Assembly: GCA_029856435.1 (NCBI GenBank)
Contig: JAHQXB010000170.1
Location: forward strand, 1 to 43,808
Direction: 5' to 3'
DNA from: Candidatus Jordarchaeia archaeon
Lineage (GTDB): Archaea; Asgardarchaeota; Jordiarchaeia; Jordiarchaeales; Jordiarchaeaceae
DNA length: 43,808 bases
Position 1 is the stretch's first letter. Each line of letters starts with the position of its first letter. Made by a program: the position numbers and the translations under genes. Below the pieces are notes generated by a model. It was not told the DNA's origin, did not search any database, and was given only the letters and a program-made list of their open reading frames with translations. Positions 10,058 to 41,275 of this stretch are shown here, in pieces.

Positions 10058-10067
10058 CTTTTTTTCC

Positions 10068-10868: not shown

Positions 10869-10871
10869 TTT

Positions 10872-11585: not shown

Positions 11586-11587
11586 TT

Positions 11588-12196: not shown

Positions 12197-12762
12197 TAGA
12201 GGGTCCCCTTTGCACTTGGTACCTCTTCTTCTCCTCTCCTAGGGTCTATACTAACGGCTTGTCTTAGGGATAGGGCCAAAGCTTTGAACACTGCTTCCAC
12301 CTTGTGGTGATTGTTGTTCCCATATAATACTTTGATGTGTAGATTCATATTCGCTGATTGTGCAAGTGAAAATAGAAAGTGTTCAATGTCCTCGGCTTCT
12401 ACATCTTCGATAGTAACTTCTTTTAGATTTATGTCTAGGTTCACGTAGCTTCTTCCACCAAGATCTATTGAGACCAGCACCAGAGAGTCATCCATTGGGG
12501 TGATTGCCCATCCGAATCGGAAGATTCCCTTCTTTTTCCCCAGAGCCCTATTTAGGGCTTCTCCCATAGTTAGGGCGACGTCCTCGATTATGTGGTGGCT
12601 TAGGTCTCCCTGTGCCTCTATGCTAAGATCTATGAGGGAGTGTTTTGAAAGTGTTTGTAGTTGATGTTCAAGGAATTTTATGCCTGTTTGTATGTTTCCT
12701 TTTCCGGTTCCATCAAGATTTACTTCAACTTCCACTCTGGTTTCCAGAGTCTCTCTTTTCAC
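12196..12762 (-). CDS. hisB: Imidazoleglycerol-phosphate dehydratase
   Basis: RETLET, TGIKFLEH, HHIIED, PMDD and NNHHKVEAVFK motifs. Confidence 0.95.
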   Translation of the reverse strand: MKRETLETRVEVEVNLDGTGKGNIQTGIKFLEHQLQTLSKHSLIDLSIEAQGDLSHHIIEDVALTMGEALNRALGKKKGIFRFGWAITPMDDSLVLVSIDLGGRSYVNLDINLKEVTIEDVEAEDIEHFLFSLAQSANMNLHIKVLYGNNNHHKVEAVFKALALSLRQAVSIDPRRGEEEVPSAKGTL

Positions 12763-12772
12763 CTTAGCGGTT

Positions 12773-15123: not shown

Positions 15124-16405
15124 TCTTAAACCTCGCTTTAATCGATTCTGCGTGAGCGTATAAGCCCTCAAATTCAGCTAGAGTAACCACAGTTTCGGCC
15201 AATCCCTTAAGGCCAGCATGAGAGCATTCAATAACACTGATGGTCTTCACAAAGTTATATGAGGACAGACCCGAGTAAGCCTTGGCGTATCCTCCTGTGG
15301 GTAGAACATGGTTTGAGCCCGCGGAGTAATCACCCACTGCTACTGGAGAGTAAGACCCCAGAAATATTGCTCCCGCATTTTTCACTTTTTTTAAAAGAGA
15401 TTTGGGAGATTTAACATGAATTTCCAAGTGTTCTGGAGCATAATTGTTTGAAAATTCCACCGCTTCGTCCAAATCCCGTGTAACAAGTATCCATAGGTTC
15501 TCCAAGGATTCCAAAAGTATTTCCTTACGTGGAAGAAGTTCCAAGAATCTATTTATGGAACTCTCAACTTTGTGAGCTAGTACCTCTGAGGTGGTGAGAA
15601 GTATCACTTTGGCTTGGGGGTCGTGTTCCGCCTGTGAGAGCATATCCGCCGCTATAAAGTTAGGGTCTCCAGTGTCATCAGATATTATGAGCAGTTCACT
15701 GGGGCCCGCGGGAAGGTCTATCCTAACGTGTCTACTAACTAAAAATTTTGCTGCCGTCACGTAAATGTTGCCGGGTCCGAATATTGCTTCAACTTTTGGA
15801 ATCACTTCAGTTCCATAAGCCATTGCAGCTATTGCTTGGGCTCCTCCAACTTTATAGATCTCTGTAACTTCCGCCTCACTACATGCTACAAGTATTGCAG
15901 AGTTAATGGTTCCATTCTCCTGGGGCGGTGTACAAACAATTATTTGTTCTACGCCCACCAATTTGGCGGGAACTGCGGTCATTAAAACTGTTGACGGGTA
16001 GGCCGCCCTACCTCCAGGTACATAAATCCCCACCCTTTCCAAAGGTCTAATTATCTGAGAAACATTAACTCCAGATTGAGTATTGCAGGAAAATTCATTT
16101 ATCTGTCTCTCATGAAATTTTCGAATGTTAACCATAGATCTGTTAATGGCTTTAAGCAATTTCGGGGGCACATTTTTGTAAGCGGAGTTAATCTCTTCCT
16201 CTGAAACTCTGAGCTTATCTTTAGAGATAAATACCTTGTCAAAATTAAAGGTATAGTCAATTACGGCTTCGTCTCTTCTTTGCTTCACGTCATCCACTAT
16301 GCTTTGCACTGCTGGAAGTATTTTTTCCAACTCCAAATTGTAACGGTATACTATAGCCTGCTTTTCCTCGTTAGTCAGTGAACTCAAACCTCTAATTTTT
16401 ACCAT
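15113..16405 (-). CDS. hisD: Histidinol dehydrogenase
   Basis: YVPGGRAAYPS, GGAQAIAA, GPGNIYV, PAGPSE, QAEHD, APEHLE and GSNHVLPT motifs. Confidence 0.97.
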   Translation of the reverse strand: MVKIRGLSSLTNEEKQAIVYRYNLELEKILPAVQSIVDDVKQRRDEAVIDYTFNFDKVFISKDKLRVSEEEINSAYKNVPPKLLKAINRSMVNIRKFHERQINEFSCNTQSGVNVSQIIRPLERVGIYVPGGRAAYPSTVLMTAVPAKLVGVEQIIVCTPPQENGTINSAILVACSEAEVTEIYKVGGAQAIAAMAYGTEVIPKVEAIFGPGNIYVTAAKFLVSRHVRIDLPAGPSELLIISDDTGDPNFIAADMLSQAEHDPQAKVILLTTSEVLAHKVESSINRFLELLPRKEILLESLENLWILVTRDLDEAVEFSNNYAPEHLEIHVKSPKSLLKKVKNAGAIFLGSYSPVAVGDYSAGSNHVLPTGGYAKAYSGLSSYNFVKTISVIECSHAGLKGLAETVVTLAEFEGLYAHAESIKARFKSEK

Positions 16406-16500
16406 TCCATACACTCCAAAATTTGGTACTCTTCACATCAAAAACCTAAGATTCTAAAGCAAGTAACATTCAACCGAATATCTGTTAAATTTTTGGTGAA

Positions 16501-17802
16501 TTATTTTACTCCTTGCAGGTAACTAATTAGATTTCCAATTTTTACTAATTCTTGCATCTCCTTCTCCATATTTCTGACCACTACTTCTCCCTGTTCGAAT
16601 TCCTTTTTACCCACTATGACTACGTATGGTATTCCCATCTTATTTGCCCGTTCTAATCCTTTACTCAGCTTCCTTTCCAAAATATCCAGTTCTGTGGACA
16701 ATCCATTCTCTCTCAAACTCTTTGAAATTCTTATCGCCTCTCCCTTCAGTTCCTTATCTATATAGAGTACGAGTATCTGTGGCTTCTTTTTTAGTGGAAA
16801 GTTAAATCCCTGCCTTTCCAAGGCTAGGTGGCAGCGGTCTACACCGATGGCGAATCCAGTTGCGGGAAATGACCCCCCGCCGAACTGTGCTACTAAGTCA
16901 TCATAGCGTCCACCGCCCCCCACCGCTATTCCTAGGCTTTGAACGAATCCCTCAAAAACTGCACCCGTGTAATAATCAATTCCCCGCACTATGCCCAAAT
17001 CCACCATAATATACGAATCCAAATCGTATAGCTTCAGAATTTTAACAATATCAGATATATTTTGTATACAGGCTTTCACCTCTTCGTTTTCAACCCTATC
17101 AAGAATCTTTTTTGTTACTCTGACATCTCCCCTGAGGTTTGGAAGCATCCGAAAAACATCCTTCATACTGGAGCTCACATCAACCTCTTTAAGTGCTGTC
17201 TCTAAACCCTCCTCGTCCTTCTTATCTATTGATCTTCGAATGGCGGCCGCCTCCTCCAGAGAAAGGCCTGCCTCTTTAACTATAGATTTAAAGAGTCCCA
17301 CATGACCCAATTCCACCACAAGCCCCTTCAGTCCGATTCCACTTAGAGTGGTGATAAATACGGCAATCACCTCCGCATCGGCATCTGGTAAACTGCTTCC
17401 ATAAAGCTCAATGCCCGCATGCCAAAACTCTCTCTGGCGCCCGGACTGAGGCTCCTCATAACGGAACATGGGAGCCAAATAATACATTCGCATCGGAATA
17501 GGGTGATTTCTAAGCTGAGTGGCTACTACACGCGCAATGGGGCTGGTCATTTCCGCCCTCAAAGCTAACTGGCGTCCACCCTTATCCTTGAAACGAAACA
17601 TGCTCTCCTGTAGTTCTTGACCAGTGCCTGTAGCAAGCGAATCAAAGTATTCAAAGGTGGGTGTTCGAATCTCTTTAAAGCCCCAAAGCTCAAAATTTGT
17701 ACGCATTTTATTCTCAATATAACTTCTTTTTTCCATGTAATCGAAGTAGTAATCTTGAGTTCCCTTAGGAGTTTTAAGCTTAAAAGAAAGGTTCTTACTC
17801 AC
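16501..17802 (-). CDS. hisS: Histidyl-tRNA synthetase
   Basis: PKGTQD, FRYEEPQSGRQREF, RGIDYYTG and GGGGRYD motifs plus a complete C-terminal anticodon-binding domain. Confidence 0.85.
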   Translation of the reverse strand: MSKNLSFKLKTPKGTQDYYFDYMEKRSYIENKMRTNFELWGFKEIRTPTFEYFDSLATGTGQELQESMFRFKDKGGRQLALRAEMTSPIARVVATQLRNHPIPMRMYYLAPMFRYEEPQSGRQREFWHAGIELYGSSLPDADAEVIAVFITTLSGIGLKGLVVELGHVGLFKSIVKEAGLSLEEAAAIRRSIDKKDEEGLETALKEVDVSSSMKDVFRMLPNLRGDVRVTKKILDRVENEEVKACIQNISDIVKILKLYDLDSYIMVDLGIVRGIDYYTGAVFEGFVQSLGIAVGGGGRYDDLVAQFGGGSFPATGFAIGVDRCHLALERQGFNFPLKKKPQILVLYIDKELKGEAIRISKSLRENGLSTELDILERKLSKGLERANKMGIPYVVIVGKKEFEQGEVVVRNMEKEMQELVKIGNLISYLQGVK

Positions 17803-20789: not shown

Positions 20790-23036
<2,247 letters not shown>

Positions 23037-23592: not shown

Positions 23593-23701
23593 GGAGATGT
23601 AGAATTGCTCGATTTTGTCCCCGAAAGGGGGCTCGTATAGAGGCTTCTTTTTCGATTCGGAGCCTTAAAAAAGGGTTAGAATTGGACTTTTTTACATCAC
23701 T
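23593..23701. repeat. Diverged copy of the 107-109-bp structured repeat
   Basis: GGAGATGTAGAATTG start, GTCCCC-GAAA-GGGGGC hairpin, AGGCTTC..GGAGCCT hairpin and TTTACATCAC end are collinear with the copies at 29331 and 36205. Confidence 0.7.
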
Positions 23702-28473: not shown

Positions 28474-29166
28474 TTAAAGTTTTATGTGTTTTTCATTTTT
28501 CTGGCTTTTGGCGATGTTGAAGCAGTTTTCAACAATGCGTACGTATTCAAAATATTCAGTTTCGCCTAGGTAGTCATTGGACAGCTTTTCTTGGAACTTT
28601 ACCCAGTGAGCCTGAGCCTTCCCTAATTTTCCGTTAATTAGGGCTCCACAAGTTTTTGCTAATTCTCGCCTCCAAATTCTAATTCTTTTTGTTTGGGCTA
28701 AATCCAAACTTTTTAGGGCGAGATTTTTAGCTAATTCTTTGTCGCCAAGGAGGAAACTGCAAAAAGAGGCCCAACTATATTCAGAGATGGCAGTTTCGAT
28801 TAAAGAAGTAGATTTTCTTCCTACATCTTGCCATTTGGCCATATTTTCTTCAGCTGCATCTATATGCATTTTTGCGGATTGTGACAAATTTTCCACGAAT
28901 TTGTTATTATTGCCGACTCCACGATAATAGGAAGCGAAGCCACTGTAAACTAGGGCCATATACTCTTTTTTGTCCAAGTGCTCATTTGCGACTTCCATAG
29001 CTTTATTATAACAATCAAGAGAATTTAGCAAGTCGCTGGACTCCCTGAAAAAACACCCTGCTCGAATATATCTCAGGAAGGCTCCAACAAAATCACCGCA
29101 CTTTGCGTGCTCTCTAGCATCATTCAAATATTCCAAAGCGGTCTTTTCAGCAATCATTGAAAGCAC
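28474..29166 (-). CDS. SNAP/TPR-like helical repeat protein, paralogue of the two neighbouring genes
   Basis: TPR-like CYNKAMEVA and YYRGVGN segments; the C-terminal SWASFCSF..D...A...A.KSL..G.LGKA..HW module is shared with its neighbours. Confidence 0.7.
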   Translation of the reverse strand: MLSMIAEKTALEYLNDAREHAKCGDFVGAFLRYIRAGCFFRESSDLLNSLDCYNKAMEVANEHLDKKEYMALVYSGFASYYRGVGNNNKFVENLSQSAKMHIDAAEENMAKWQDVGRKSTSLIETAISEYSWASFCSFLLGDKELAKNLALKSLDLAQTKRIRIWRRELAKTCGALINGKLGKAQAHWVKFQEKLSNDYLGETEYFEYVRIVENCFNIAKSQKNEKHIKL

Positions 29167-29330
29167 CTTCTTTTGGATGTACTAACGAGTCCAAAATTAA
29201 AATTTACCATTCCTCCAGAAATAAGACGCGCTAAACAAGAATTAGAGAGGCCGAAAAACGCCTCTACGAAAGTTGACAAGAGAAGATTCCAGCGATTCGA
29301 AATTTAAAGGTAACGTTAAGACTAACTAGC

Positions 29331-29437
29331 GGTGATGTAGAATTGTTCGGTTTCGCCTCAAAAAGGGGTGTTTATAGGGCTTCTTTCATGATTTGGAGCC
29401 TTACTAGGGAGATGGAACCGAATAAATCTGCATCACC
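29331..29437. mobile_element. 107-bp structured repeat / MITE-like element
   Basis: Terminal inverted repeat GGTGATGTAGA/TCTGCATCACC; flanked by AGACTAACTAGC (29319-29330) and AGACTAATTAGC (29438-29449); near-identical copy at 36205. Confidence 0.8.
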
Positions 29438-29853
29438 AGACTAATTAGCTTACCGTCGCAAATTATATTGTACAAGTTTTAGGCTGGCTCAGCTGAACAC
29501 GCCTAGAATGCTTGGGGAGGATATCTAAAAAAGAAACAGTTTATAGAGCGTAAAACTTGTAGGAATATTATCCTATTGAACCTCAAATGGGTAAATGTTT
29601 GCGTAAACGATATCTGGGCGAAGTATTCTAAATGAAACAAGTTGTGACAGCCGAAGAACAAGTTGCAGCACTTTCAGCATGAATTTGTGAGATAGTGAAT
29701 TCTGCCAATCAGTTGACCGGCACATTTTAGAATTATGATTTGTGTCTTTTAGAACTTTTTCCAAGGTAATTTGTTTCGAGTATTACGTTAAATTGAAATT
29801 ATACGGGGATTACTTTTTTCCGTTCACTTTCTTTTCTCACTGGAGGTTAGAGC

Positions 29854-31125
29854 TTGTTAAAAGAAAAAGTTGCTAGTTTTACAGCACGCCCCGACGAGGT
29901 TGATTTGTGTGTATTACTATACTCTGGAGGGCTAGACACTTCCTGTATGCTTGTGTGGCTACAAGAAAAGTATAATACAGACGTTATTACAGTAACTCTT
30001 AACGTGGGGCAGGCAAAAGATTTCAGGGAAATAGAGGAAAAGGCCAAAATGCTCGGCGTCAAAAAGCATTATACCATAGACGCTAGAGAGGAATTTGTAA
30101 ATGAGTACATAATGAAAGCCATTAAGGCTAATGCACTTTACCAGGACGCCTACCCCATAAGTTCATCGCTATCACGACCATTAATTGCAAAATGGGGAGT
30201 GGAAATCGCCAAGAAAGAAGGCGCTGATGCAATTAGTCACGGTTGTACAGGCAAGGGAAATGATCAAGTGCGTTTTTCTGTTACGATTAACACTCTTGCA
30301 CCAGAGATGAAAATTATTGCGCCAGTGGTTGAGTGGGGAATGAGTCGTGACGACGAAATTATATATGCCCAAGAGCATGGAATCCCCATCCCCGTTACAG
30401 TAAATTCGCCATATAGTATAGATGAGAACTTGTGGGGTAGAAGTATAGAATGTGGAGTTTTAGAACACCCAGAAGTTGAGCCTCCACCGGATGTCTTCCT
30501 TTGGACAACCCCACCTGAAAAGGCTCCTAATGAACCCTGCTACGTTGAAATTGGCTTTGAAGAGGGCGTCCCAGTTTCTGTTGACGGCGTGCGAATGAAT
30601 GGTGTTGATTTAATTATGAAGCTCCACGAGCTGGGGTGCATACACGGCGTTGGAAGAATTGACCACATGGAAGATAGAATTGTGGGGTTAAAGTCTAGAG
30701 AAGTATACGAGTGTCCAGCAGCAACGATTCTCCTGAAGGCGCACAAGGATCTTGAGAAATTTGTCTGTACTAGGCATGAAAACGCCTTCAAGAAGCTTGT
30801 GGATGAGCAGTGGACAAGCTTAGTTTATAGCGGTCTCTGGGTCGAACCTCTAATGGAGGACTTGGAAGCATTCATAAATAATGTGAATAGGAAGGTTACG
30901 GGCACAGTACGGCTCAAGCTCTTTAAAGGAAACGTTAGTGTTGTAGGCCGCAGTTCCAACTACGCCCTCTATGATGAGAATCTCGCAACCTACGATAGAA
31001 AGTCTACTTTCAACCAGTTGGCTTCACTGGGCTTCATCGAGTTGTGGGGGCTACAGTCCAGAATGGCTCAGGTAGTTAAGCCGAAAAGCGGGGGAATACA
31101 AAGCAAAACCGTTAAATACATGTGA
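29854..31125 (+). CDS. argG: Argininosuccinate synthase
   Basis: LYSGGLDTS, HGCTGKGNDQVRF, SIDENLWGRSIECG and KSREVYE motifs. Confidence 0.97.
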   Translation: MLKEKVASFTARPDEVDLCVLLYSGGLDTSCMLVWLQEKYNTDVITVTLNVGQAKDFREIEEKAKMLGVKKHYTIDAREEFVNEYIMKAIKANALYQDAYPISSSLSRPLIAKWGVEIAKKEGADAISHGCTGKGNDQVRFSVTINTLAPEMKIIAPVVEWGMSRDDEIIYAQEHGIPIPVTVNSPYSIDENLWGRSIECGVLEHPEVEPPPDVFLWTTPPEKAPNEPCYVEIGFEEGVPVSVDGVRMNGVDLIMKLHELGCIHGVGRIDHMEDRIVGLKSREVYECPAATILLKAHKDLEKFVCTRHENAFKKLVDEQWTSLVYSGLWVEPLMEDLEAFINNVNRKVTGTVRLKLFKGNVSVVGRSSNYALYDENLATYDRKSTFNQLASLGFIELWGLQSRMAQVVKPKSGGIQSKTVKYM

Positions 31126-31145
31126 ATGTGAGAGAAGGAAATCCG

Positions 31146-32642
31146 ATGAGCGACAAACTTTGGGGAGGGCGTTTTAGCAAAAAGTCTAGGGAAGACGTGG
31201 AAAATTTTACCGCGGGAGAGGATATACTCCTCGACCAAAGGTTAGCAATTTATGACGTGTTGGGAACCATCGCCCATGACTACATGCTATATAAGGTGGG
31301 CGTTCTGAACAAGGAAACTCTCCAAAAAATCCTCGTTTCTCTAATGAATATTAAAAGGAGAATTGAGGAGAATAAATTCCAGCTCCTACCAGAGCTAGAG
31401 GACGTACATATGAACATTGAAAAAAAAGTAATCGAGGAAATCGGTGAGGAATATGGGGGGATGATGCACTTAGCGCGCTCAAGAAATGACCAAGTACTGC
31501 TGGATACTAGAATGTATCTCAGAGACCAAATAAATGAAGTCTCGGAGCTGGTTCTCAACTTAATTTCCACCTTTATTGATGTAGGCGAAAAAAATTTAGA
31601 AACACTTATGGTAGGCTACACGCATACACGCCAGGCACAACCGACCACAGTCGGGCACTGGTGCGCCGCCTACATTGACTCACTTCTAAGAATAGTAGAC
31701 AGATTGGAGGAAGTTTATGCTAGAGTTAATCAGTGCCCGCTTGGGTCCGGAGCAATCAGTGGAGTCAGTTGGCCTATTGATAGAAGCTTGACCGCAAGTT
31801 TATTGGGCTTTGACCGCGTTCAGGAAAACACACTGGATGCGGTATCCTCTAGGGGTGAAGTTGAATCCGAGATAGTATTCATTCTTTGTTTATTAATGAC
31901 AATTCTCAGTAGACTGTCCGAAGAGTTAATTTGGTGGTCAACTGGCGAGACGGGGCTAATTGAATTAGATGAGGCTTACACTACTGGAAGTAGTTTGATG
32001 CCTCAGAAGAAGAATCCCGACGTGCTCGAGCTCACTCGGGCGAGGACTGGTAGACTTTACGGCTGTCTAATACAGATCCTTACCATTCTCAAGGGGCTTC
32101 CCTCAGGGTACAATAGAGACCAACAAGAAATCAAGGAGCCCCTTTTTAGAAGTTTGGATACCGCTAAATCCGTGCTCAAAGTTATGCCCGGTTTAGTCAG
32201 CACACTCAAGTTCAATCAAGAACGGATGCTAAAGGTAATCTTGGACAGTTATTCCACAGCCACCGAACTTGTAGATTTATTAATTAAGAAAGCAAAAATA
32301 TCATTTCGCTCCGCGCATAGAATAGTGGGAATGTATGTTAAGCGAACACTTGAAAGCGGTAAAAAAATAGATCCAGAACTGTTGACTACTCTGATTAGGG
32401 AGGAAACTGGTAAAAAAATTGAGTTAGGTGGAGAGGTGATAGAGGAGGCCATTAACCCTCTTGCAATGCTAAGGAGGAGGAATCATATTGGAGGACCTGC
32501 ACCAGTTGAAGTCAAAAGAATGCTAACGGATAGAAAGGAAGCTCTGAAATCTAAAGGAAGTAGCCTTATGAAGAGAATTCAAAAATGTAAATCCGCCTTC
32601 ATAGAGCTGGAAAAACTTGTTAGAGAGGTTATTCCCAGCTAA
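31146..32642 (+). CDS. argH: Argininosuccinate lyase
   Basis: LWGGRF, EDVHMNIE, RSRNDQV, YTHTRQAQP and GSSLMPQKKNPD motifs. Confidence 0.97.
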   Translation: MSDKLWGGRFSKKSREDVENFTAGEDILLDQRLAIYDVLGTIAHDYMLYKVGVLNKETLQKILVSLMNIKRRIEENKFQLLPELEDVHMNIEKKVIEEIGEEYGGMMHLARSRNDQVLLDTRMYLRDQINEVSELVLNLISTFIDVGEKNLETLMVGYTHTRQAQPTTVGHWCAAYIDSLLRIVDRLEEVYARVNQCPLGSGAISGVSWPIDRSLTASLLGFDRVQENTLDAVSSRGEVESEIVFILCLLMTILSRLSEELIWWSTGETGLIELDEAYTTGSSLMPQKKNPDVLELTRARTGRLYGCLIQILTILKGLPSGYNRDQQEIKEPLFRSLDTAKSVLKVMPGLVSTLKFNQERMLKVILDSYSTATELVDLLIKKAKISFRSAHRIVGMYVKRTLESGKKIDPELLTTLIREETGKKIELGGEVIEEAINPLAMLRRRNHIGGPAPVEVKRMLTDRKEALKSKGSSLMKRIQKCKSAFIELEKLVREVIPS

Positions 32643-32766
32643 AAGTGTTCTGTTCGGAACTAGTTATTTTGGGTTGAGTTATTTTTAACACATTATGTTT
32701 TTATATCATTTCTCTTTTTTCTTGCCGCATCCAAAAATACTCGTAAATTATCGGAGGTTAGCAGGA

Positions 32767-32940
32767 ATGAAAGGCAAATGTCCAGAATGCTTCTTTGAGT
32801 TTGATGTGGAAGACAATGTTATGATAGGTGAAATAGTGGAGTGCCCCGACTGTGCGGTTCAATTGGAAGTGCTTGAGAAGAACAATGGCGGTGTAGTTTT
32901 CGAGACTGCACAGTTAGAAGAAGAAGATTGGGGCGAGTGA
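32767..32940 (+). CDS. lysW: Amino-group carrier protein LysW/ArgW
   Basis: CPEC..CPDC Zn motif and C-terminal EDWGE; 57 aa. Confidence 0.97.
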   Translation: MKGKCPECFFEFDVEDNVMIGEIVECPDCAVQLEVLEKNNGGVVFETAQLEEEDWGE

Positions 32941-32948
32941 CTACATCG

Positions 32949-33791
32949 ATGAAAATAGGACTGATTTACAACCAGATATCATGGGAAGAAAAGACAATAA
33001 TTGAAGAGGCAAAAAAACAGGGTTTGGAAATAAAACCTTTAGACTGTAGAAAGATGAGCCTAAAAATACAGGATGGTAACGCCTTTTCAGACATCGACCT
33101 TTTTCTGGAAAGATCTTTAAGCTATACAAAGGGACTTTACTCCACCATGGTTCTTGAATCTCAGGGCTTTAAGGTCATAAATTCGGCTGAGTGCCAAGAA
33201 ATATGCGGCAATAAACTAAAAACCTCTGCTACCTTGTATAGATCGGGAATACCACAACCCAAAACTTACATTGCCTTCTCATACGAATCAGCCCTCAAAG
33301 CCCTAGAAGAGCTGGGGTACCCTGCTATTATTAAACCTTTAATAGGAAGCTGGGGGAGACTGGTAGCAATTTTAAAAGATGAACAGTCAGCAAAAGCCAT
33401 AATAGAGTCCCGAGAAGTTCTGGGTTCTGTTTTTCACAAGGTTTACTACTTGCAGGAATTTATCAAAAGCGGAAGAGACATCAGAGCCTTCGTGGTGGGC
33501 GAATCAGTAGTTGCAGCCATGTATCGCTATCTGATTCCAGGAGACTGGAGAAGCAATGCAACCATAGGCGCCAAAGCAGAAGCATGCAAGGTTACACCAG
33601 AAATTGAAGACCTAGCCCTTAAAACAACCACCGCAACCAGAGGCGAAATAGTAGGTGTCGACATGTTCGAAAATGAAAATCAGCTCCTAGTGAACGAAGT
33701 AAACCACGCCCCCGGATTTAGACACATAACGCTGGCCACAGGGGTAAACGTAGCCGAGAAAATTATAAACTATTTACACAGGTGCAAATAA
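32949..33791 (+). CDS. lysX: LysW-glutamate / alpha-aminoadipate ligase (RimK/ATP-grasp family, LysX/ArgX)
   Basis: KPLIGSWGRLV, YLQEFI, RDIRAFVVG, DWRSN and VNEVN motifs; directly follows lysW. GTG 32937 is an alternative start. Confidence 0.93.
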   Translation: MKIGLIYNQISWEEKTIIEEAKKQGLEIKPLDCRKMSLKIQDGNAFSDIDLFLERSLSYTKGLYSTMVLESQGFKVINSAECQEICGNKLKTSATLYRSGIPQPKTYIAFSYESALKALEELGYPAIIKPLIGSWGRLVAILKDEQSAKAIIESREVLGSVFHKVYYLQEFIKSGRDIRAFVVGESVVAAMYRYLIPGDWRSNATIGAKAEACKVTPEIEDLALKTTTATRGEIVGVDMFENENQLLVNEVNHAPGFRHITLATGVNVAEKIINYLHRCK

Positions 33792-33886
33792 GAAAAAACA
33801 CCCAAAAACGCAAAGAAAAATTTGCTTATAAAAAACGTTTTTTCGTAGTCAAAAATGTTGGCACATGGTAAAGGAGAGTAACATCG

Positions 33887-34687
33887 TTGATTATTACAAT
33901 TAAAATTGGAGGATCATTAGCGAATAGGGAAACAGAGAGCCTGGTAGAAGATGTGAGCAAGCTGATAAAGGAACACAAATTAGTAATTGTTCACGGTGGA
34001 GGGCCTCAGATTAATCAAATCTCCAAGAAACTGGGGAAGGAGCCGATAATTGTGAGGTCGCCTAGCGGCTTTAAAAGTAGATTCACAGACAAAGAAACAA
34101 TGGATATAACAATCATGGCCATGGCGGGCAAAGTGAACAAAAACATAGTTGCCCTCCTACGTAAAAACCAAGTTCCCGCAATAGGACTAACTGGGCTAGA
34201 TGGAAAGACGATAGTCGCCGAAAGAAAAGACAAGATAGTTGCCATTGAGAACGGCAAAAAAAGGGTACTGAGAGGGGATTACAGCGGCAAAATCAGGGAA
34301 GTAAACGGAGCACTCCTCAAATTAATCATGGAAAACGGGTATCTTCCAGTAGTTGCACCCATTGGAATCAGTCTAGATAACGAGCCGGTAAACCTTGATG
34401 GGGATAGAGCCGCGGCGTACATCGCAAAGGCGGTAAACGCGGATATTTTCGTCTCACTCACAGATGTTCCAGGATTAATTATCGATGGTGAGTTGGTCCG
34501 AAATCTTAACAGGCAAGAAGCTGAGGAAGTTCTGAAAAAAGTGGAGGGTGGAATGCGGAAGAAGATTTTTGCAGCCCTTGAAGCTCTTGATTTAGGTATA
34601 AAAACGGTAATTATTTGTTCTGGTCTTGAAAAAAATCCTGTATCTTCAGCGCTTGAACTTAAAGTGGGGACTGTAATAAAATGGTAG
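33887..34687 (+). CDS. lysZ: LysW-glutamate / aminoadipate kinase
   Basis: IKIGGS, VHGGG, RFTDKET, NLDGDRAAA, LTDVPG and GGMRKK motifs. Confidence 0.93.
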   Translation: MIITIKIGGSLANRETESLVEDVSKLIKEHKLVIVHGGGPQINQISKKLGKEPIIVRSPSGFKSRFTDKETMDITIMAMAGKVNKNIVALLRKNQVPAIGLTGLDGKTIVAERKDKIVAIENGKKRVLRGDYSGKIREVNGALLKLIMENGYLPVVAPIGISLDNEPVNLDGDRAAAYIAKAVNADIFVSLTDVPGLIIDGELVRNLNRQEAEEVLKKVEGGMRKKIFAALEALDLGIKTVIICSGLEKNPVSSALELKVGTVIKW

Positions 34688-35772
34688 ACCCCATAGAATA
34701 CCTTTTGGAGATGCTGGAAATCCCTAGCGTCTCTGGAAAGGAGCACAGATTTTCTGTTTTTTTGATGGAGAGCCTTAAAAACATGGGCTACAAAGTTAAA
34801 CAGGACAACGTGGGAAACGTGCTTGGTAAAATAGGAGAAGGAAGACCCACACTTCTCTTTTCTTCTCATATTGACACTGTTCCGGGAGAGATTCCAGTTA
34901 GGGAGGAAAACGGGAGAATTTATGGTAGAGGTGCCGTTGATGCTAAAGCTTCCGTGGCCTCTATGATACTTGCAGGCTCCATAGTTCCAGAACTGAATGT
35001 GGATGGCACACTGGTATTTGCAGGTGTTGTGGAGGAGGAATCCAGTTTGAGGGGAATTCAGAGTTTATTGGAGGAAGACCTCAAAGCTGATTATGCAATA
35101 TTTGGTGAGCCGACAAAAAACGATAGAATATGTTTGGCATCTAAGGGTAGACTACTATTCAAAATAAATTTGAAAACTAGAGGCGGACATGTAGCCTGTT
35201 CCTGGGTTTACAAAAACTCCATAGAACTTGCATATGACCTTTGGAAAAAAATTAAGGAAAGTGTGGAGACTAAAGAGAAGTCACCCTTCTTTTCCACGAT
35301 TCCTAATCTCACACAAATAGTGGGTGGTGTGGCCCCTAACGTTATTCCCAGCGAGTGCCAATTATTTATAGATGTCCGTTTCCCATACCTTGTTAAATCC
35401 ACGAAGCTTTTGGGAACAGTTGAAAAAATCTTTAAAGAGTTTAGAGAAATAAATGGAGTTCAAATAAGTTATGATGTTTTGAGCCAAATAGAAGGATTTA
35501 GAGCGAATAAGGACTCTACACCAGTGAAAGAATTAGCCAAAGCAATTATAGATGTTAAACACACAGAGCCACGTTACATAAGAAAAACAGGCACCTGCTT
35601 CATGAATCTAATTGGGCGATGGTACAACATACCAATAGTAAGTTATGGGCCAGGAGACCCAGCGCTGGAACACACTGACGAGGAGAACATAGAAAAGAGG
35701 GAATTTTTGGAATCTATAGACATCCTTGAAAAAACAATTAGAAACATTTTTTGCCAAAAAAGAGAGTCCTAG
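34681..35772 (+). CDS. lysK: LysW-ornithine/lysine hydrolase (M20 peptidase, LysK/ArgE)
   Basis: SHIDTVPG, GRGAVDAK, VEEE, FGEP and YGPGD..LEH motifs; overlaps the lysZ stop. Confidence 0.9.
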   Translation: MVDPIEYLLEMLEIPSVSGKEHRFSVFLMESLKNMGYKVKQDNVGNVLGKIGEGRPTLLFSSHIDTVPGEIPVREENGRIYGRGAVDAKASVASMILAGSIVPELNVDGTLVFAGVVEEESSLRGIQSLLEEDLKADYAIFGEPTKNDRICLASKGRLLFKINLKTRGGHVACSWVYKNSIELAYDLWKKIKESVETKEKSPFFSTIPNLTQIVGGVAPNVIPSECQLFIDVRFPYLVKSTKLLGTVEKIFKEFREINGVQISYDVLSQIEGFRANKDSTPVKELAKAIIDVKHTEPRYIRKTGTCFMNLIGRWYNIPIVSYGPGDPALEHTDEENIEKREFLESIDILEKTIRNIFCQKRES

Positions 35773-35909
35773 ATGCAAACATCAACCACTCTGCCATTTG
35801 TAACTTTAATTAAACTTATCTATCACTAGAAGTGATTCATCTGACCCGCCACTAGCATAGACTTTTTAGAAGCCCCTGTTCGATAAAAGTCGTTAATTCA
35901 ATTATATGG

Positions 35910-36110
35910 CCAAAGGAAGGAACGCCCGTTCTGACACAGCGTTAACCTTGCATAGCTTGAGTCTTCCTCCCTCGGTTTCATGGGAAGGCTTTCTCCTAGG
36001 GAACGGTTGAAGCGGGCACATCTCCCTTGTTTTCGGTGGGATGATGTTCCCGGTTGTGGCCCTGTCCTCTTTTGGGCTTTTTCGAGCCTTCCGCATTCCG
36101 GGCTTGAGCT
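35910..36110. ncRNA. Candidate structured non-coding element of unknown family
   Basis: GC-rich intergenic block with stems 35910-35917/36068-36075, 35921-35925/35939-35943, 35967-35972/35998-36003 and 36013-36026/36038-36052; shares three collinear motifs with 43619-43797. Confidence 0.35.
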
Positions 36111-36204
36111 AGAATCGGATGCGCGACATGTATGTGTGGTTTTTTTGAGGAATGATGGGTTTAATGGTTTTTCTTTAACGTTAACTGTTGGGTTTCTCAA
36201 ACCG

Positions 36205-36312
36205 GGTGATGTAGAATTGTTCGGTTTCGCCTCAAAAAGGGGGTGTTTATAGGGCTTCTTTCACGATTTGGAGCCTTATTAGGGAGATGGAACCGAATAA
36301 ATCTGCACCACC
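36205..36312. mobile_element. 108-bp structured repeat / MITE-like element
   Basis: Nearly identical to 29331-29437 (a few substitutions and one extra G); GGGTTTCTCA occurs on both sides (36190-36199, 36313-36322). Confidence 0.8.
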
Positions 36313-36355
36313 GGGTTTCTCAGGTTAACAAGCTTTATTCTAAATAGAAGCAGTT

Positions 36356-36646
36356 TTAAACTCCCATCGAGAATCCAGCAACTTCCTCAATAAATTCCGC
36401 GTCAGCAAAACTAACCTTTCTGAAGAGGTTATCTCCGCTAACTTTTTTCATTCAACCTTCTTGTCACTAGGTGCTATAACTAGAAATGGCTTCTTGCACT
36501 CATTTACTAGCAGTAGAGACTTTGCAATTTGAGATGTGCTTATGCTTAGGGCTAATGCTGCTTGTTCTGAGGTAGCAGTTTTCACACTTAGTTTAATTAT
36601 TTCGGCAGATATATTTTGGTGCCCCAAAAATTTTTGATCCTCTCAA
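36356..36646 (-). pseudogene. YbaK/EbsC (INS-superfamily aminoacyl-tRNA deacylase) pseudogene
   Basis: Manual translation gives KFLGHQNISAEIIKLSVKTATSEQAALALSISTSQIAKSLLL..KPFLVIAPSDKKVE*KKLAEITSSE, then after a 1-bp deletion VSFADAEFIEEVAGFSMGV*. There is an in-frame TGA at 36448-36450 and a frameshift near 36417-36419. Confidence 0.8.
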
Positions 36647-36666
36647 CGCTGATGCAGAAATCAGTT

Positions 36667-37656
36667 TTACATCACAAGTGAAAGGATAGCCTTCTGAACA
36701 TGTAGCCTGTTTTCAGCTTCATCGTAAATTATGGAATGCGGCCCATCAACCACACCGTCTGTGGCCTCAACATTTCTCCTTATGGGCAGACAGTGCATAA
36801 AAATCGAATTTTTATTGGTAAGATCCATCAAGTCTTCGTTGCAAATCCAATTTCGAAAATTCACTCTGAGTTCTTTTTCTTCCTCGGGCTTCCCGTAGTA
36901 CTTGAGGGAACCCCATGCTTTCACGTACACAATATCAGCGTCGCGATAAGCTTCCTCCATGTTATGTGAAACCTCCAAATTGCAGCCGTTCGCCTCACAA
37001 TTGCTCCTAGCCCAACTCATTATCTGTTCATCCAGCTCAAAGCCCTTTGGATGCAGTAGGGTAACATCCAAACCGAACCTCGTCGCTATAAGAAGCGCAG
37101 AGTTGGGAACACTCACTGGCAAGGGTCTAGGGTGGTAAGCCCAGCTTAAAACAAACTTTTTACCCCTCAGATTCCCCATTTTCTCCTTAATAGTTAGTAT
37201 GTCAGCTAGAGCTTGGCAAGGATGAAAGAGGTCGCACTCCATATTAATTACAGGTATATCTGCCCACCTTGCAAATTCACGTACCACCTCGTTACTCTTT
37301 CCATATTGCCAGTCTGTGATGTTTGGAAATATACGAATAGAAATAGCATCGCCATACCTTGCCATAACCGAAGCGGTATCCTTTATAGATTCAGAACCCT
37401 TTCCAATCCAAGCCTTCTCAGCATCCATGTAGACCGCATGGCCGCCTAGCTGAGTCATACCAATCTCAAAAGACAAACGTGTACGAGTGCTAGGATTAAA
37501 AAAAAGCATAATAAGGGATTTCCCCTGTAGCGTCGAAGAGAAATTCTTAGGATTTTTTTTCATGTCCCCTGCAAGCTTTAATACAGACTCCAAATCCTCG
37601 AAACTCCATTCCTGAGTAGTTATCAAATCCTTACCCTTTAAATTGCCCTGAAACAT
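36667..37656 (-). CDS. argF': N-acyl-ornithine carbamoyltransferase (AOTCase/SOTCase, ArgF-prime family), not a canonical OTCase
   Basis: FFNPSTRTR, HPCQALAD, SWAYHPRPLP..VPNS, YVKAWG and HCLPIRRN; the canonical OTCase SMG loop is absent. Confidence 0.9.
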   Translation of the reverse strand: MFQGNLKGKDLITTQEWSFEDLESVLKLAGDMKKNPKNFSSTLQGKSLIMLFFNPSTRTRLSFEIGMTQLGGHAVYMDAEKAWIGKGSESIKDTASVMARYGDAISIRIFPNITDWQYGKSNEVVREFARWADIPVINMECDLFHPCQALADILTIKEKMGNLRGKKFVLSWAYHPRPLPVSVPNSALLIATRFGLDVTLLHPKGFELDEQIMSWARSNCEANGCNLEVSHNMEEAYRDADIVYVKAWGSLKYYGKPEEEKELRVNFRNWICNEDLMDLTNKNSIFMHCLPIRRNVEATDGVVDGPHSIIYDEAENRLHVQKAILSLVM

Positions 37657-37847
37657 GAAGACATCTCCTAGATTTGATATTTTCTTAACATTTACGCTTA
37701 TAGTTTAAAAAAGTTTCAACCAATCACAATTAAAATGCTAGTTCAAATAAAAAATAGAGGTGCGAATTCTTATTCAGAAATACTCGCAAACATAAAATTA
37801 GTGGGCTAAAAATTTAACAAGTCCCAGAGAAAAATTTTTCACCTATC

Positions 37848-38186
37848 TTAGCATAATCCCGCTTCTTGCAATCTCTTCAGTACCTGTTCATACTTTTCCT
37901 TTCTATTTATTATATCGTTAACCATCTCTTCATTCATATGTGTCCCTGGGCGCACCTTAACTTCGGCGTCTACTCCTAAAGCGTCCTTCAGTTTCTTCTT
38001 AATAAGCACACCTATAACTGATCCCATAGGGCACATCGCTGAGGTAGGCTTGAAAGTTACTGTTATCTTTTTATCAGATTCGATTGTTATGTCGTCCTCA
38101 TTAACCATGTCAAGTTCCAATATTGACATCGGCATTTCGGGATCCTGCACTTCTTTCAAAACTTCAAGTACTTTTTGTTTGTCCAA
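37848..38186 (-). CDS. DUF59 / MIP18 / SufT-like Fe-S cluster assembly protein
   Basis: VLEVLKEVQDPEMPMSILELDMV and PTSAMCPMG motifs. Confidence 0.88.
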   Translation of the reverse strand: MDKQKVLEVLKEVQDPEMPMSILELDMVNEDDITIESDKKITVTFKPTSAMCPMGSVIGVLIKKKLKDALGVDAEVKVRPGTHMNEEMVNDIINRKEKYEQVLKRLQEAGLC

Positions 38187-38343: not shown

Positions 38344-39585
38344 CTAACATTTTTTTAAAACTTTGGCAATTATGTGCCTTAAGGGTAAATTTGTTTCTTT
38401 TGCTATTTTTTTAAGGTCTTCAAACTCGGGCTTAATTCTGATAACTTTGCCACTTGTATCTCTGGCGATTTTGAGTTTAAACTCGTAGGATTTGCCCTCA
38501 ATATTGATACAGGCAGTATTAATTTCGCGTTTCAAAACTAGTCTGGGAGTGGGGGTTATGCGAACCCCCAAGCTTCCGGTTTCGTCTATTAGTATTCTTG
38601 AAAGTTTGGGGGCGTCCTCCAAGCTCGATATTACTTTGATGATTTGTCCGGGGCGGCCTTTTTTTGTAACAACAGGTATTACGCTGACATCTTTCGCTCC
38701 TTTTTCGAATAGTACATCTACAGTTTGACCAATTATTTCTCCGGAAACATCATCAATGTTGGTCTCCAGAACTGCGACCATTTCCTCAATAAGGTTATAG
38801 GATTTCCCATTTGGAGCCTCACTGTCACCAATAATGATTCTTAAAACATTTGGTATGGTCGGAAAATTTTTCATTCCTGCACCATACCCTACCCTGATGT
38901 TTCGAATGCTGGGGAGAAAATTAGTAAACACGACGCCTAAGCTGGCAATTATTGAAGCTCCAGTAGGCGTAGTTAACTCAAAGTTAAGGGGCCCTCCTCT
39001 CAATAGAAAATTGTTGCTTTTAGCTATTTCTAATACGGCGGGAGGTGGAACGGACATAGTTCCATGCACAGATACCACTTGTCCGCCTCCCACGGCAATC
39101 GATGAACAGAACCATTGACAATCCTTTATTAGACCCAGATCATCGCAAGCCACAGCTGAACCTATAGCGTCTGCTAGAGTGTCAGCAGAACCTATTTCGT
39201 GTAAATGGGTGTAATCCTGATGTTCTCCATGAATCTTAGATTCCGCATCGGTGATAGTTCTCACAATTTTTATTGCAAATTCTTTGGCCTCCTGAGATAT
39301 AGGTAGTTCTTTTGCGCAGGCGATTGTAGCATCTAGAACTTCTTTTCCACTTCTGGGTTCATCTACTTCGTTTGGCACTATTTGAATTTGGGTTGCTTTT
39401 AACTCACACCTCGTGGTTTTACTAATGTTTACTTCTATTCCACTGCAACCTCTGAGAAATTTGGGAATAAGTTTTACAGCTTTGACCACCCTATCGGGGT
39501 CTGCACCTAAATCCAGTAATGCTCCCAAGAACATGTCACCGGAAATCCCAGCCACCTGGCAATCAATAAACGCCATTCTGCTCAT
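38344..39585 (-). CDS. larC: Nickel-pincer cofactor nickel insertion protein LarC
   Basis: AGISGDMFLGALLDLG, HLHEIGSAD, ELTTPTGA, ETNIDD, TKKGRPG and KPEFED motifs. Confidence 0.95.
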   Translation of the reverse strand: MSRMAFIDCQVAGISGDMFLGALLDLGADPDRVVKAVKLIPKFLRGCSGIEVNISKTTRCELKATQIQIVPNEVDEPRSGKEVLDATIACAKELPISQEAKEFAIKIVRTITDAESKIHGEHQDYTHLHEIGSADTLADAIGSAVACDDLGLIKDCQWFCSSIAVGGGQVVSVHGTMSVPPPAVLEIAKSNNFLLRGGPLNFELTTPTGASIIASLGVVFTNFLPSIRNIRVGYGAGMKNFPTIPNVLRIIIGDSEAPNGKSYNLIEEMVAVLETNIDDVSGEIIGQTVDVLFEKGAKDVSVIPVVTKKGRPGQIIKVISSLEDAPKLSRILIDETGSLGVRITPTPRLVLKREINTACINIEGKSYEFKLKIARDTSGKVIRIKPEFEDLKKIAKETNLPLRHIIAKVLKKC

Positions 39586-40433
39586 TTCCTCACACCCTCC
39601 TCGGTTTTTAGCTTTGCCCTGTATCTTGCCACCCTATTTGCTATCAGAGCCGCCGTAGCCCCTGCACCGAACCCATTGTCAATATTGACCACGCTAAGCC
39701 CCGCTACACAGGATTGCAGCATAGTAATGAGAGCCCCCAGTCCCTTCCCTCCGAATCCGTAGCCAGTACTGGTAGGCACTCCAACGACTGGAATGTCAAC
39801 TAGACTAGCTACAATTGAAGGAAGTGTCCCCTCCATACCCGCGACTACAATTAGCGAGTCAACCTCTGCCTCCATCATTTTGCTCAGAGGGGGAAATACT
39901 CTGTGCAGTCCTGCGATGCCTACATCATATGAGGTTAGAACTTCGCAACCCATAGATTCAGCTATGACCTTCGCTTCTTCAGCCACGGGAATGTCTGAAG
40001 TGCCTGCGGTAATAATTCCCACCTTTCCGCCCGTTTTTTCGAAGTGCTTTCCTTTATGGCTCACTCTGACAGTTCCCGATTTTTCAAAGATTTCTAGTTT
40101 AAAATTTTCAGATATCCCTTTTTTTAGAAGGGTGATTTGTTCCTCATTTGCCTTAGAGATTAAAACATATGGTTTTTGTGAAAGTACATTGTTAACGATT
40201 TTTATCAAATCTTCTGGACTTTTCCCTCTAGCAAAAACCACTTCGGGAACACCCTTGCGAAGCTCCCTCCTTAAATCAAACTTCACAAAATCATCTATCT
40301 CTAGGATGCAGCTACTTCTCAGTAAACTCTCTGCCTCATCAATAGAAATTTCCCCAGCAGAAAACTTCTCCAAGATATTTCTTAACTGACTCATCCGGAT
40401 CAATCCTTTATCTCGCAATTTGCTACTAATCAC
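39582..40433 (-). CDS. larB: Nickel-pincer cofactor carboxylase/hydrolase LarB
   Basis: RKGVPEVVFARGK, AGTSDIPVAEEA, DVGIAGLHR, VAGMEGTLPS, PTSTGYG and VVNIDNGFGA motifs; ATGA overlap with larC. Confidence 0.95.
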   Translation of the reverse strand: MISSKLRDKGLIRMSQLRNILEKFSAGEISIDEAESLLRSSCILEIDDFVKFDLRRELRKGVPEVVFARGKSPEDLIKIVNNVLSQKPYVLISKANEEQITLLKKGISENFKLEIFEKSGTVRVSHKGKHFEKTGGKVGIITAGTSDIPVAEEAKVIAESMGCEVLTSYDVGIAGLHRVFPPLSKMMEAEVDSLIVVAGMEGTLPSIVASLVDIPVVGVPTSTGYGFGGKGLGALITMLQSCVAGLSVVNIDNGFGAGATAALIANRVARYRAKLKTEEGVRK

Positions 40434-41275
40434 TTAGAAGTGGGAATTGTAGTCTTCCCTTTTAAAACTTCGTCCATGGCTCCGGTTCTATACCCTTCTG
40501 CATCTATGGTGCAGTACTTAAAACCTAGCTCCTTCAGTTTTTCCACTATTTTGTCTAGAATCTCTATTGAGAATATTTTTTCCCGCTCCTCTTTTCCAAC
40601 TTCTATTCTTGCCAGATCTCCATGACTTCTAACCCTTAATACCTTTACACCAACCAATTGTTTTATGTATCTTTCAGATTCCGCTACTCGGCGTAGTTTT
40701 TCGTAGGTGATAACTTCGCCATAGGGTATTCTTGTGGCCAAGCAAGCCATAGAAGGTTGGTTAGAAACACTTAAACCTCTGTCACGCGCAATAATTCTTA
40801 TTTCCTCCTTGGTTATGCCAGCTATAATGTAAGGAGACAAAATTCCTTCCTCGCGTAGGGCCAAAATCCCTGGACGGTGAACAAGCATGTCCGAGGCATT
40901 ACTTCCCTCAACAACTAATTCGTAGCCTCTTTCCTCAGCTATTTTATTCAGATTTTGGAATAATTTCTTTTTGCAATAATAACATCTATTAGCAGAGTTC
41001 GCCACAAATTGGGGATCATTCAAACTGTCAAACCAGATAACTGTATGCTCTACCTCTAACTCTCTTGCCACCCTCTCCGCGTTTTCTTTCTCTTCGGGGG
41101 GAATGATTGGAGAGTCCACAGTTATTGCCAAAACCTTTCTACATACATCTTTTGCTAAGCTCACCATGACACTACTGTCAACTCCGCCAGAAAAAGCTAC
41201 CATCACAGTTTTACCCCTAAGGACACTGTACACAGTACCTATTTTTGACACTATTTTTTCATCCAATTTCTGCAA
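40430..41275 (-). CDS. larE: Nickel-pincer cofactor sulfur insertase LarE
   Basis: PP-loop AFSGGVDS, RCYYCK, EGSNASD..HRPG, ACLATRIPYG and RVRSHG motifs; GTGA overlap with larB. Confidence 0.95.
   Translation of the reverse strand: MQKLDEKIVSKIGTVYSVLRGKTVMVAFSGGVDSSVMVSLAKDVCRKVLAITVDSPIIPPEEKENAERVARELEVEHTVIWFDSLNDPQFVANSANRCYYCKKKLFQNLNKIAEERGYELVVEGSNASDMLVHRPGILALREEGILSPYIIAGITKEEIRIIARDRGLSVSNQPSMACLATRIPYGEVITYEKLRRVAESERYIKQLVGVKVLRVRSHGDLARIEVGKEEREKIFSIEILDKIVEKLKELGFKYCTIDAEGYRTGAMDEVLKGKTTIPTSK

Follow-up and report, generated by a model that had tools for sequence, protein, structure and literature searches.

Gene content of the locus

The stretch analysed here, referred to as the window, comprises 43,808 nucleotides of the forward strand of contig JAHQXB010000170.1 (assembly GCA_029856435.1, Candidatus Jordarchaeia archaeon). 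At positions 29854-37656 it carries an arginine gene cluster in which genes of the LysW amino-group carrier protein system face a transcarbamylase of the N-acyl-ornithine type (ArgF', protein P0001). An earlier reading of the DNA letters, made without database searches and called below the sequence-only reading, had proposed that this enzyme may act on ornithine still attached to LysW. Genes were assigned from an open reading frame (ORF) listing and family-model scans (NCBIfam, TIGR and Pfam), with bit scores compared with the model cut-offs; all seven genes of the cluster, argG, argH, lysW, lysX, lysZ and lysK facing the ArgF' gene, were found where that reading had placed them.

The cluster opens on the plus strand with argG, encoding argininosuccinate synthase (29854..31125; NF001770 567 bits, cut-off 334; TIGR00032 534 bits), whose position in the cluster is the same in the related loci L022-L026, L031 and L040, and continues with argH, encoding argininosuccinate lyase (31122..32642, plus strand; TIGR00838 515 bits, cut-off 279.5). 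The arg-cluster copy of lysW follows (32767..32940, plus strand) and encodes a 57-amino-acid zinc-ribbon amino-group carrier protein with the C-terminus EEEDWGE (PF21344 47.7 bits; NF041070 61 bits, under the cut-off of 75). Its start was placed at the conserved M25, the upstream extension of the ORF from 32695 being unconserved. The LysW motifs CPxC...CPDC and EDWGE are invariant in an alignment of 12 orthologues, which was assembled from the retrieved loci since a word-index homologue search yielded four proteins only.

Downstream lie a ligase of the LysX/ArgX ATP-grasp family, the enzyme that loads glutamate on LysW (32928..33791, plus strand; TIGR02144 303.9 bits, cut-off 275.6), lysZ for a [LysW]-glutamate/aminoadipate kinase (33887..34687, plus strand; NF010659 275.8 bits, cut-off 223; NF010662 252.9 bits, cut-off 194), and lysK for the arg-cluster paralogue of the M20-family [LysW]-amino-acid hydrolase (34681..35772, plus strand; TIGR01902 235.5 bits, cut-off 163.1). 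The best solved relatives of the ligase are Sulfolobus LysX (3VPD), Thermus LysX (1UC8) and ArgX (3VPB); by score it is slightly closer to Sulfolobus LysX than to ArgX, and it is called ArgX here by context only. The ArgF' gene (36667..37656) lies on the minus strand, convergent with lysK. A zinc-ribbon carrier with a C-terminal EDWGE and the LysX/ArgX, LysZ and LysK enzymes that mark the LysW pathway are all present in the window, and the locus is best explained as the arginine branch of this pathway. Related loci place the host among the Asgard archaea, in Jordarchaeia/Freyarchaeia.

Family and residue signature of ArgF'

ArgF' (329 amino acids) scores 398.1 bits with NF003384, the NCBIfam model of N-acetylornithine carbamoyltransferase (cut-off 288), and falls below the cut-off of the canonical ornithine carbamoyltransferase (OTCase) model (TIGR00658, 274.3 versus 280.85 bits). 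Its nearest solved structures are those of the N-acetylornithine carbamoyltransferase (AOTCase) of X. campestris (3KZC and mutants; E ~1e-96 over residues 8-327), the single best match being 3M5C, which has Glu at position 302, while other entries of the same enzyme have Lys. The carbamoyl-phosphate motifs S56-T-R58-T59, H145-P-C-Q148 and H288-C-L-P291 are in place, as are the motifs WAYHPRPLP and HCLPIRRN that the sequence-only reading had recognised as signatures of AOTCase and of the N-succinylornithine carbamoyltransferase (SOTCase). E140 and K246 correspond to E144 and K252, which anchor the ornithine carboxylate in AOTCase. ArgF' has no SMG-type 240s loop of canonical OTCases; its KAWGSL resembles KSWGAL of AOTCase.

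A proline-rich loop and an extended 120s loop are signatures of the knotted group of transcarbamylases, whose members recognise the second substrate differently from unknotted OTCases (PMC4581275). Both are found in ArgF': the proline-rich loop reads HPRPLPVSVP, and the 120s region aligns with 3KZC free of gaps. A trefoil knot is predicted for ArgF' from its full-length alignment to 3KZC.

Within the knotted group, AOTCase is marked by Glu92, Asn185 and Lys302, and SOTCase by A/S/P/V/Q, P and V/I/E at these positions (PMC4581275); the GapMind 2026 preprint summarises the same specificity mutagenesis. In the alignment to 3KZC, Ser88 of ArgF' falls on Glu92, as the sequence-only reading had deduced, Pro180 on Asn185 and Glu297 on the carboxylated Lys302. 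These residues lie in the shortened 80s loop W83-I-G-K-G-S88 (37393..37410, minus strand), the proline-rich loop H175-P-R177-P-L-P180 (37117..37134, minus strand) and the stretch HCLPIRRNVE (36766..36795, minus strand). ArgF' is thus without the triad of AOTCase proper (EC 2.1.3.9) and carries residues of the SOTCase set (EC 2.1.3.11). The B. fragilis enzyme grips the succinyl group of its substrate via H176, R178 and R278 (PMC4581275), and H175 and R177 of ArgF' correspond to the first two of these anchors. The HPR motif itself, taken in the sequence-only reading as SOTCase-like, is present and proved unspecific: most relatives in the same clade have HPK, and the AOTCase-type relative P0127 has HPR. 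As judged from the alignments, ArgF' is supported as an N-acyl-ornithine-type (knotted) transcarbamylase with succinyl-type, not acetyl-type, residues, and this signature already argues against acetyl specificity.

Relative to the two characterised enzymes, ArgF' shows the following likenesses and differences. With X. campestris AOTCase it shares SxRT, HPxQ, HxLP, the proline-rich loop, the 120s loop, the 80s-loop Trp and the E144/K252 pair, and it differs by Ser, Pro and Glu at positions 92, 185 and 302 and by a 10-residue deletion. With SOTCase it shares the knotted family (E ~1e-44), the specificity residues (a small residue, Pro and V/I/E), the His/Arg pair at the succinyl-anchor positions, and an arginine-cluster setting followed by an ArgE/LysK-type M20 hydrolase; it differs from SOTCase by an 80s loop shorter by 10 residues, by its archaeal host, and by neighbours that are lysW and a LysX-family ligase rather than a free acyl pathway. 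The acyl group proposed for ArgF' would be the C-terminal gamma-glutamyl of a 57-amino-acid protein.

The shortened 80s loop and the SES clade

The loss of part of the 80s loop was borne out, with 10 residues missing relative to AOTCase (two 5-residue gaps) instead of the estimated 12 or so. Among 150 representatives selected at 50% identity, the stretch from Trp to position 92 spans 4 residues in the clade of ArgF', here called the SES clade, and 14 in AOTCase/SOTCase-like proteins. The extended 80s loop of the knotted enzymes is therefore absent from ArgF', though the substrate-binding Trp (W83) is kept. The corresponding motif, W-x4-S-E-S-x-K-D, was looked for in the 120 closest database proteins, and all the full-length sequences but six have it; five of the six exceptions have the long loop, and one has a single extra residue. 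Named members of the clade are nearly all Asgard archaea (Freya/Jordarchaeia, Helarchaeota, Lokiarchaeota, Hodarchaeota and Sigynarchaeota).

The SES clade forms a monophyletic group in a FastTree phylogeny (support 0.94), nested among long-loop enzymes of the AOTCase/SOTCase type, its sister being one long-loop sequence and the next lineages out true AOTCase-type sequences; because of this nesting, the loop deletion is read as derived. Across 76 clade members the carbamoyl-phosphate motifs, W83, E140, K246, H175, L179, P180 and R294 are invariant, and S88 is conserved at 90% or more. Position 92 is mostly Ser and occasionally Ala, position 185 is Pro, position 302 is V, E or I, and residue 177 is Lys or Arg throughout the clade.

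Two database entries of the clade carry unexpected labels. Contig L030 (DATKTP010000241.1), binned as 'Candidatus Deferrimicrobium', encodes SecE, an Spt5-NGN/KOW protein and an SES-type ArgF'; it is read as archaeal because an Spt5-NGN gene stands on a bacterium-labelled contig, and it looks like a misbinned Asgard contig. On contig L027 (JAPDJY010000034.1), labelled Thermoproteota, the cluster is Jordarchaeales-like and its ArgF' shares 78% identity with that of the window. Fusions of ArgF' to LysW, LysK or LysZ were sought among longer proteins, and no relevant fusion was found, a result that carries little weight in either direction. In one 658-amino-acid metagenomic protein (P0277), a carbamate kinase is fused to a knotted transcarbamylase other than ArgF' through a linker that looks low-complexity and may stem from a frameshift.

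LysW genes and acyl routes in the rest of the genome

The genome (97.8% complete, 5.7% contamination) holds a second, complete lysW-lysX-lysY-lysZ-lysJ-lysK cluster on contig C178. The two LysX/ArgX ligases are 45% identical and the two LysK proteins 39% identical. The window cluster has neither lysY nor lysJ, and the only ArgC (LysY) and ArgD (LysJ) homologues of the genome are single copies within the C178 cluster; the window cluster must therefore borrow both enzymes from there. The pairing of ArgF' with lysW-argX-lysZ-lysK is conserved in Jordarchaeales and Helarchaeota. The same two-cluster layout occurs in a closed relative genome (G038). A LysS-type homocitrate synthase is also encoded, and the C178 cluster probably serves lysine synthesis, with its LysY and LysJ also working in the arginine branch.

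The LysW encoded on C178 (L020:369-542) ends in EDWGQ, and its orthologue in the closed relative (L039:7700-7873) in EDWGE. A C-terminal Gln offers no gamma-carboxyl for substrate loading, and the ending is either a real inactivating variant or an assembly consensus error.

The search for a free acyl route was negative for both the acetyl and the succinyl version in this genome. ArgJ was not found here or in five relatives, and ArgB, ArgC and ArgD are represented only by the LysW-cluster copies. Among 10 matches to the AA-kinase family in the genome, no ArgB was found beyond the two LysZ copies; the others, read mainly from their N-terminal sequences, are an isopentenyl-phosphate kinase, three proteins like aspartokinase, a likely UMP kinase and two short unassigned matches, together with a carbamate kinase, whose identity was confirmed by family scan.

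These inventories bear on the reading that ArgF' is an ordinary transcarbamylase for free N-succinyl-ornithine, or another free N-acyl-ornithine, fed by an unrecognised acyl-glutamate synthase, with LysZ and LysK of the arg cluster working on free acyl intermediates. Such an enzyme would fit the Ser, Pro and Glu at positions 92, 185 and 302 and the match of H175 and R177 to the succinyl anchors; moreover, new N-succinylglutamate synthases continue to be found (GapMind 2026 preprint), and LysJ and LysK of T. thermophilus also accept N-acetyl substrates (PMC12998189). We nevertheless consider this reading unlikely, given that lysW and a LysX-family ligase share the operon in every locus having the cluster, that ArgJ and free-standing ArgB, ArgC and ArgD were not found, and that ArgF' does not have the extended 80s loop common to both solved acyl-ornithine enzymes.

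Conservation across Asgard genomes

In every Jordarchaeales locus that is long enough (L022, L024-L029 and L040), the ArgF' gene stands tail-to-tail with lysW-argX-(lysY)-lysZ-lysK. Most of these loci have argG-argH ahead of the LysW genes, and in L027 lysY lies inside the cluster. An identical seven-gene layout, with an ArgF' 65% identical to that of the window, was found on the Helarchaeota contig L031, so that the pairing of ArgF' with LysW genes is seen in two Asgard classes.

Co-occurrence, which the sequence-only reading had suggested profiling, was tallied across Asgard genomes: four genomes of genus g18 (89-100% complete) carry ArgF' and LysW genes and yielded no canonical OTCase; all Jordarchaeales genomes searched have one, as discussed below. 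In three g18 genomes (98-100% complete) a PF00185 search returned a PyrB-like protein and the SES-type ArgF' as the only OTC-family genes; the SES motifs were checked in two of the three. The g18 genomes retain ArgG, one ArgC/LysY and lysW, and ArgJ was not found in them. An argX-lysZ-lysK cluster is present in the two g18 genomes examined, its genes being nearest to the window paralogues, and the single LysK of these genomes is closer to the window copy than to the C178 copy. In g18, the SES enzyme is the only candidate citrulline maker, and LysW is the only 'acyl' donor in sight.

The tally over 46 genomes is diluted by other members of the family. In families f7, f12 and f21, the proteins matching NF003384 at 240-300 bits are knotted paralogues of other kinds: they have neither SES nor HPK motifs, and no LysW genes lie nearby. 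The SES-type count was restricted to matches of about 320-400 bits, which fall in f1, f2 and part of f9. The motifs were verified in g1, g2-like, g18 and Helarchaeota loci, and g48, g49 and g59 were assigned by score. Two or three further knotted paralogues, 40-49% identical to ArgF' of the window and devoid of SES/HPK, occur in other Asgard families (L045:9082-11185; L046:6034-7074 and 16243-17253; L047:3564-4589 and 13475-14518); some form divergent adjacent pairs, and one adjoins pyrB. Three otherwise dissimilar loci have a gene for a GFO/IDH/MocA-family oxidoreductase at a distance of 0.2-2.7 kb from that of the SES-type ArgF' (L030:2289-3200, L031:6391-7308 and L032:8505-9431), and none stands beside ArgF' in this window.

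A putative carrier-bound route to citrulline

Considering the gene neighbourhood and the residue signature, we hypothesize that ArgF' carbamoylates LysW-gamma-ornithine and that the adjacent LysK releases citrulline, a proposal whose chances we put at about even. In this scheme, the LysX/ArgX ligase would load glutamate onto LysW, at the gamma-carboxyl of its C-terminal Glu, LysZ would phosphorylate the bound glutamate, and LysY and LysJ encoded on C178 would reduce and then transaminate it to LysW-gamma-ornithine. With carbamoyl phosphate as donor, ArgF' would carbamoylate the free delta-amino group of the carrier-bound ornithine, giving LysW-gamma-citrulline, and the LysK paralogue would cleave the isopeptide bond, supplying free citrulline to ArgG and ArgH; LysK would here play a part like that of ArgE after AOTCase.

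Chemically, LysW-gamma-ornithine is an N-alpha-acylated ornithine, and its acyl group, CO-CH2-CH2-CH(COO-)(NH-peptide), is near to succinyl, CO-CH2-CH2-COO-. A SOTCase-type pocket with His and Lys/Arg anchors could accommodate the LysW-linked acyl group, and the loss of 10 residues from the 80s loop, which in the solved enzymes forms a wall of this pocket, would give the peptide chain an exit and the carrier tail access. The canonical OTCase and the carbamate kinase encoded elsewhere in the genome would handle free ornithine or citrulline, possibly in catabolism; an archaeal catabolic route via OTC plus carbamate kinase has been described (PMC11032458). A true carbamate kinase is encoded on contig C117 (L042:8238-9200; TIGR00746 416 bits) and CarB is encoded as well, and together with the canonical OTCase they are consistent with a separate metabolism of free ornithine and citrulline. 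With moderate confidence, we suggest that a dedicated short-loop ArgF' and LysK paralogue working on LysW would keep anabolic flux apart from the free-ornithine pool of the canonical OTCase and carbamate kinase.

In the LysW pathway of Sulfolobus and Thermococcus, LysK releases free ornithine, on which an ordinary OTCase then acts. The Asgard locus has the same EDWGE-tailed carrier, the same enzyme families and LysY and LysJ common to the lysine and arginine branches; it differs in having an acyl-ornithine-type transcarbamylase and a second LysK paralogue in the arg cluster. If the proposal is true, LysW-ornithine carbamoyltransferase would be a new step and LysW-citrulline a new intermediate of arginine biosynthesis, and the amino-group carrier protein system would reach one reaction beyond its described extent. 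To our knowledge, no transcarbamylase has been shown to use a protein-bound substrate, and ArgF' would then be the first. The presence of an 'N-blocked ornithine'-type transcarbamylase in organisms without an acetyl or succinyl route would be explained, and the database label 'N-acetylornithine carbamoyltransferase' would be wrong for these Asgard proteins. The question also matters for predicting pathways in the archaea most closely related to eukaryotes. A search of the accessible literature returned no paper linking the LysW system with an ArgF'-type enzyme or with carrier-bound citrulline, and a 2025 paper on carrier-system evolution makes no mention of citrulline or carbamoyltransferase.

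Canonical transcarbamylases and possible alternative roles of ArgF'

Several observations weigh against carrier-bound carbamoylation. Three OTC-family genes are present in the genome, encoding ArgF', a PyrB and a canonical OTCase on contig C94 (TIGR00658 445.6 bits). The sequence-only reading had noted that no canonical OTCase is encoded in the window, which holds, the canonical enzyme lying elsewhere in the genome; of the pair that it had named as decisive, a canonical argF and an acetyl pathway elsewhere, the first is present and the second was not found. A canonical OTCase occurs in 11 of the 11 Jordarchaeales genomes searched, the closed one included, and in five of the nine SES-carrying genomes of family f9. 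The ordinary route, in which LysK frees ornithine and OTCase then acts, is thus available, so that ArgF' is dispensable on paper. Synteny is not universal either: in L032 (Lokiarchaeia-like, ArgF' 55% identical) the ArgF' gene is away from the LysW genes, and in genus g18 the ArgF' and LysW genes are scattered rather than adjacent. ArgF' itself, with a pI of 5.95, shows no overall basic character for docking the acidic LysW; the clade median pI is 8.2 versus 6.6 in long-loop relatives, a comparison confounded by taxonomy. Finally, the short loop is close in length to that of canonical OTCases (4 versus 3 residues after the anchor), and room for a carrier tail is therefore one reading of the deletion and a loop of OTCase length another.

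Contamination was considered as the source of the canonical OTCase and rejected. The tetranucleotide composition of C94 is ordinary (rank 49 of 181), its neighbouring genes are archaeal housekeeping genes, among them ftsY, ftsZ, prefoldin alpha and aIF6, and the gene recurs in all Jordarchaeales searched. On C94 the OTCase gene is directly upstream of a DMT/EamA-like transporter gene (L021:6531-8450).

An OTCase-length loop would suit a reversion of ArgF' to free ornithine, with ArgF' serving as the anabolic OTCase of the arg operon after LysK and the canonical OTCase working catabolically with carbamate kinase. Genus g18, which is without any other OTCase, the presence of both carbamate kinase and CarB in the Jordarchaeia genome, and the archaeal precedent for OTC plus carbamate kinase catabolism (PMC11032458) are in line with such a division of labour. 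The enzyme, however, has the KAWGSL sequence resembling AOTCase in place of an SMG-type 240s loop, its acyl-pocket residues W83, H175, P180 and R294 are invariant across the clade, and recognition of the second substrate differs between knotted enzymes and OTCases (PMC4581275). On balance, we regard a return to free ornithine as improbable. None of the characterised knotted enzymes is known to use free ornithine.

The coexistence of a canonical OTCase, which could suffice for arginine synthesis in most genomes, with several further knotted paralogues in Asgard genomes also leaves room for another amine as substrate, either free or bound to the carrier, e.g., LysW-lysine or a polyamine, or for a catabolic role, the proximity to arg genes then reflecting co-regulation. 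This we think very unlikely: the ornithine-carboxylate residues E140 and K246 are invariant, synteny is specifically with argG-argH and Glu-type LysW genes, and g18 needs citrulline for ArgG and offers no other candidate enzyme to make it.

Predicted complex of ArgF' with LysW

A complex prediction with LysW, suggested in the sequence-only reading, was run with two copies of ArgF' (76-row alignment) and LysW (12-row alignment). The median score was 0.50 (runs 0.52, 0.44 and 0.50), and the best control reached 0.01. In the calibration, 58 of 80 solved complexes attained the mark, as did 2 of 110 mismatched pairs. Only 7 of those 80 solved complexes had a score of 0.60 or less, a range that also holds both mismatches that passed. 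The calibration set-up, unlike the present run, did not use own alignments and two copies. The runs share at least 68% of their contacts, and the partner pLDDT is at least 76. We know of no solved complex of LysW with a transcarbamylase, and memory of a similar complex is therefore an unlikely source of the score. The model thus lends weak support to an association of ArgF' with LysW; no interface was read out from it, which belongs with the points set against carrier-bound carbamoylation above.

Repeat elements and neighbouring genes

The spacer between lysK and the ArgF' gene contains two inserted multi-copy repeat elements (35926..36362, no strand assigned) that lie outside the pathway and are missing from the same spacer in the close relatives L022-L024 and L026. 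The insertion of about 435 bp consists of two repeat families with units of about 275 bp and about 108 bp, which recur on dozens of contigs. The longer unit has copies of 80-86% identity on at least 40 of the genome's contigs, and the shorter is 92-98% identical to its copies, one of which is just upstream of argG; outside the spacer, repeat stretches in the window are at 29331-29437 and 23593-23667. An Rfam scan of 28900-37800 gave zero matches, the spacer repeats included. The repeats look like small non-autonomous mobile elements or an RNA family.

On the other side of ArgF', about 0.7 kb past the gene, larC, larB and larE for nickel-pincer cofactor synthesis occupy 38344-41275, with a small ORF encoding an FeS-assembly domain (37848-38186) in between. 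Further upstream, the window encodes SepCysS (872-2140), a his operon (~9365-17802) and a CDC48 ATPase (20790-23033), and the remainder of the window, LarBCE included, consists of archaeal housekeeping and biosynthesis genes.

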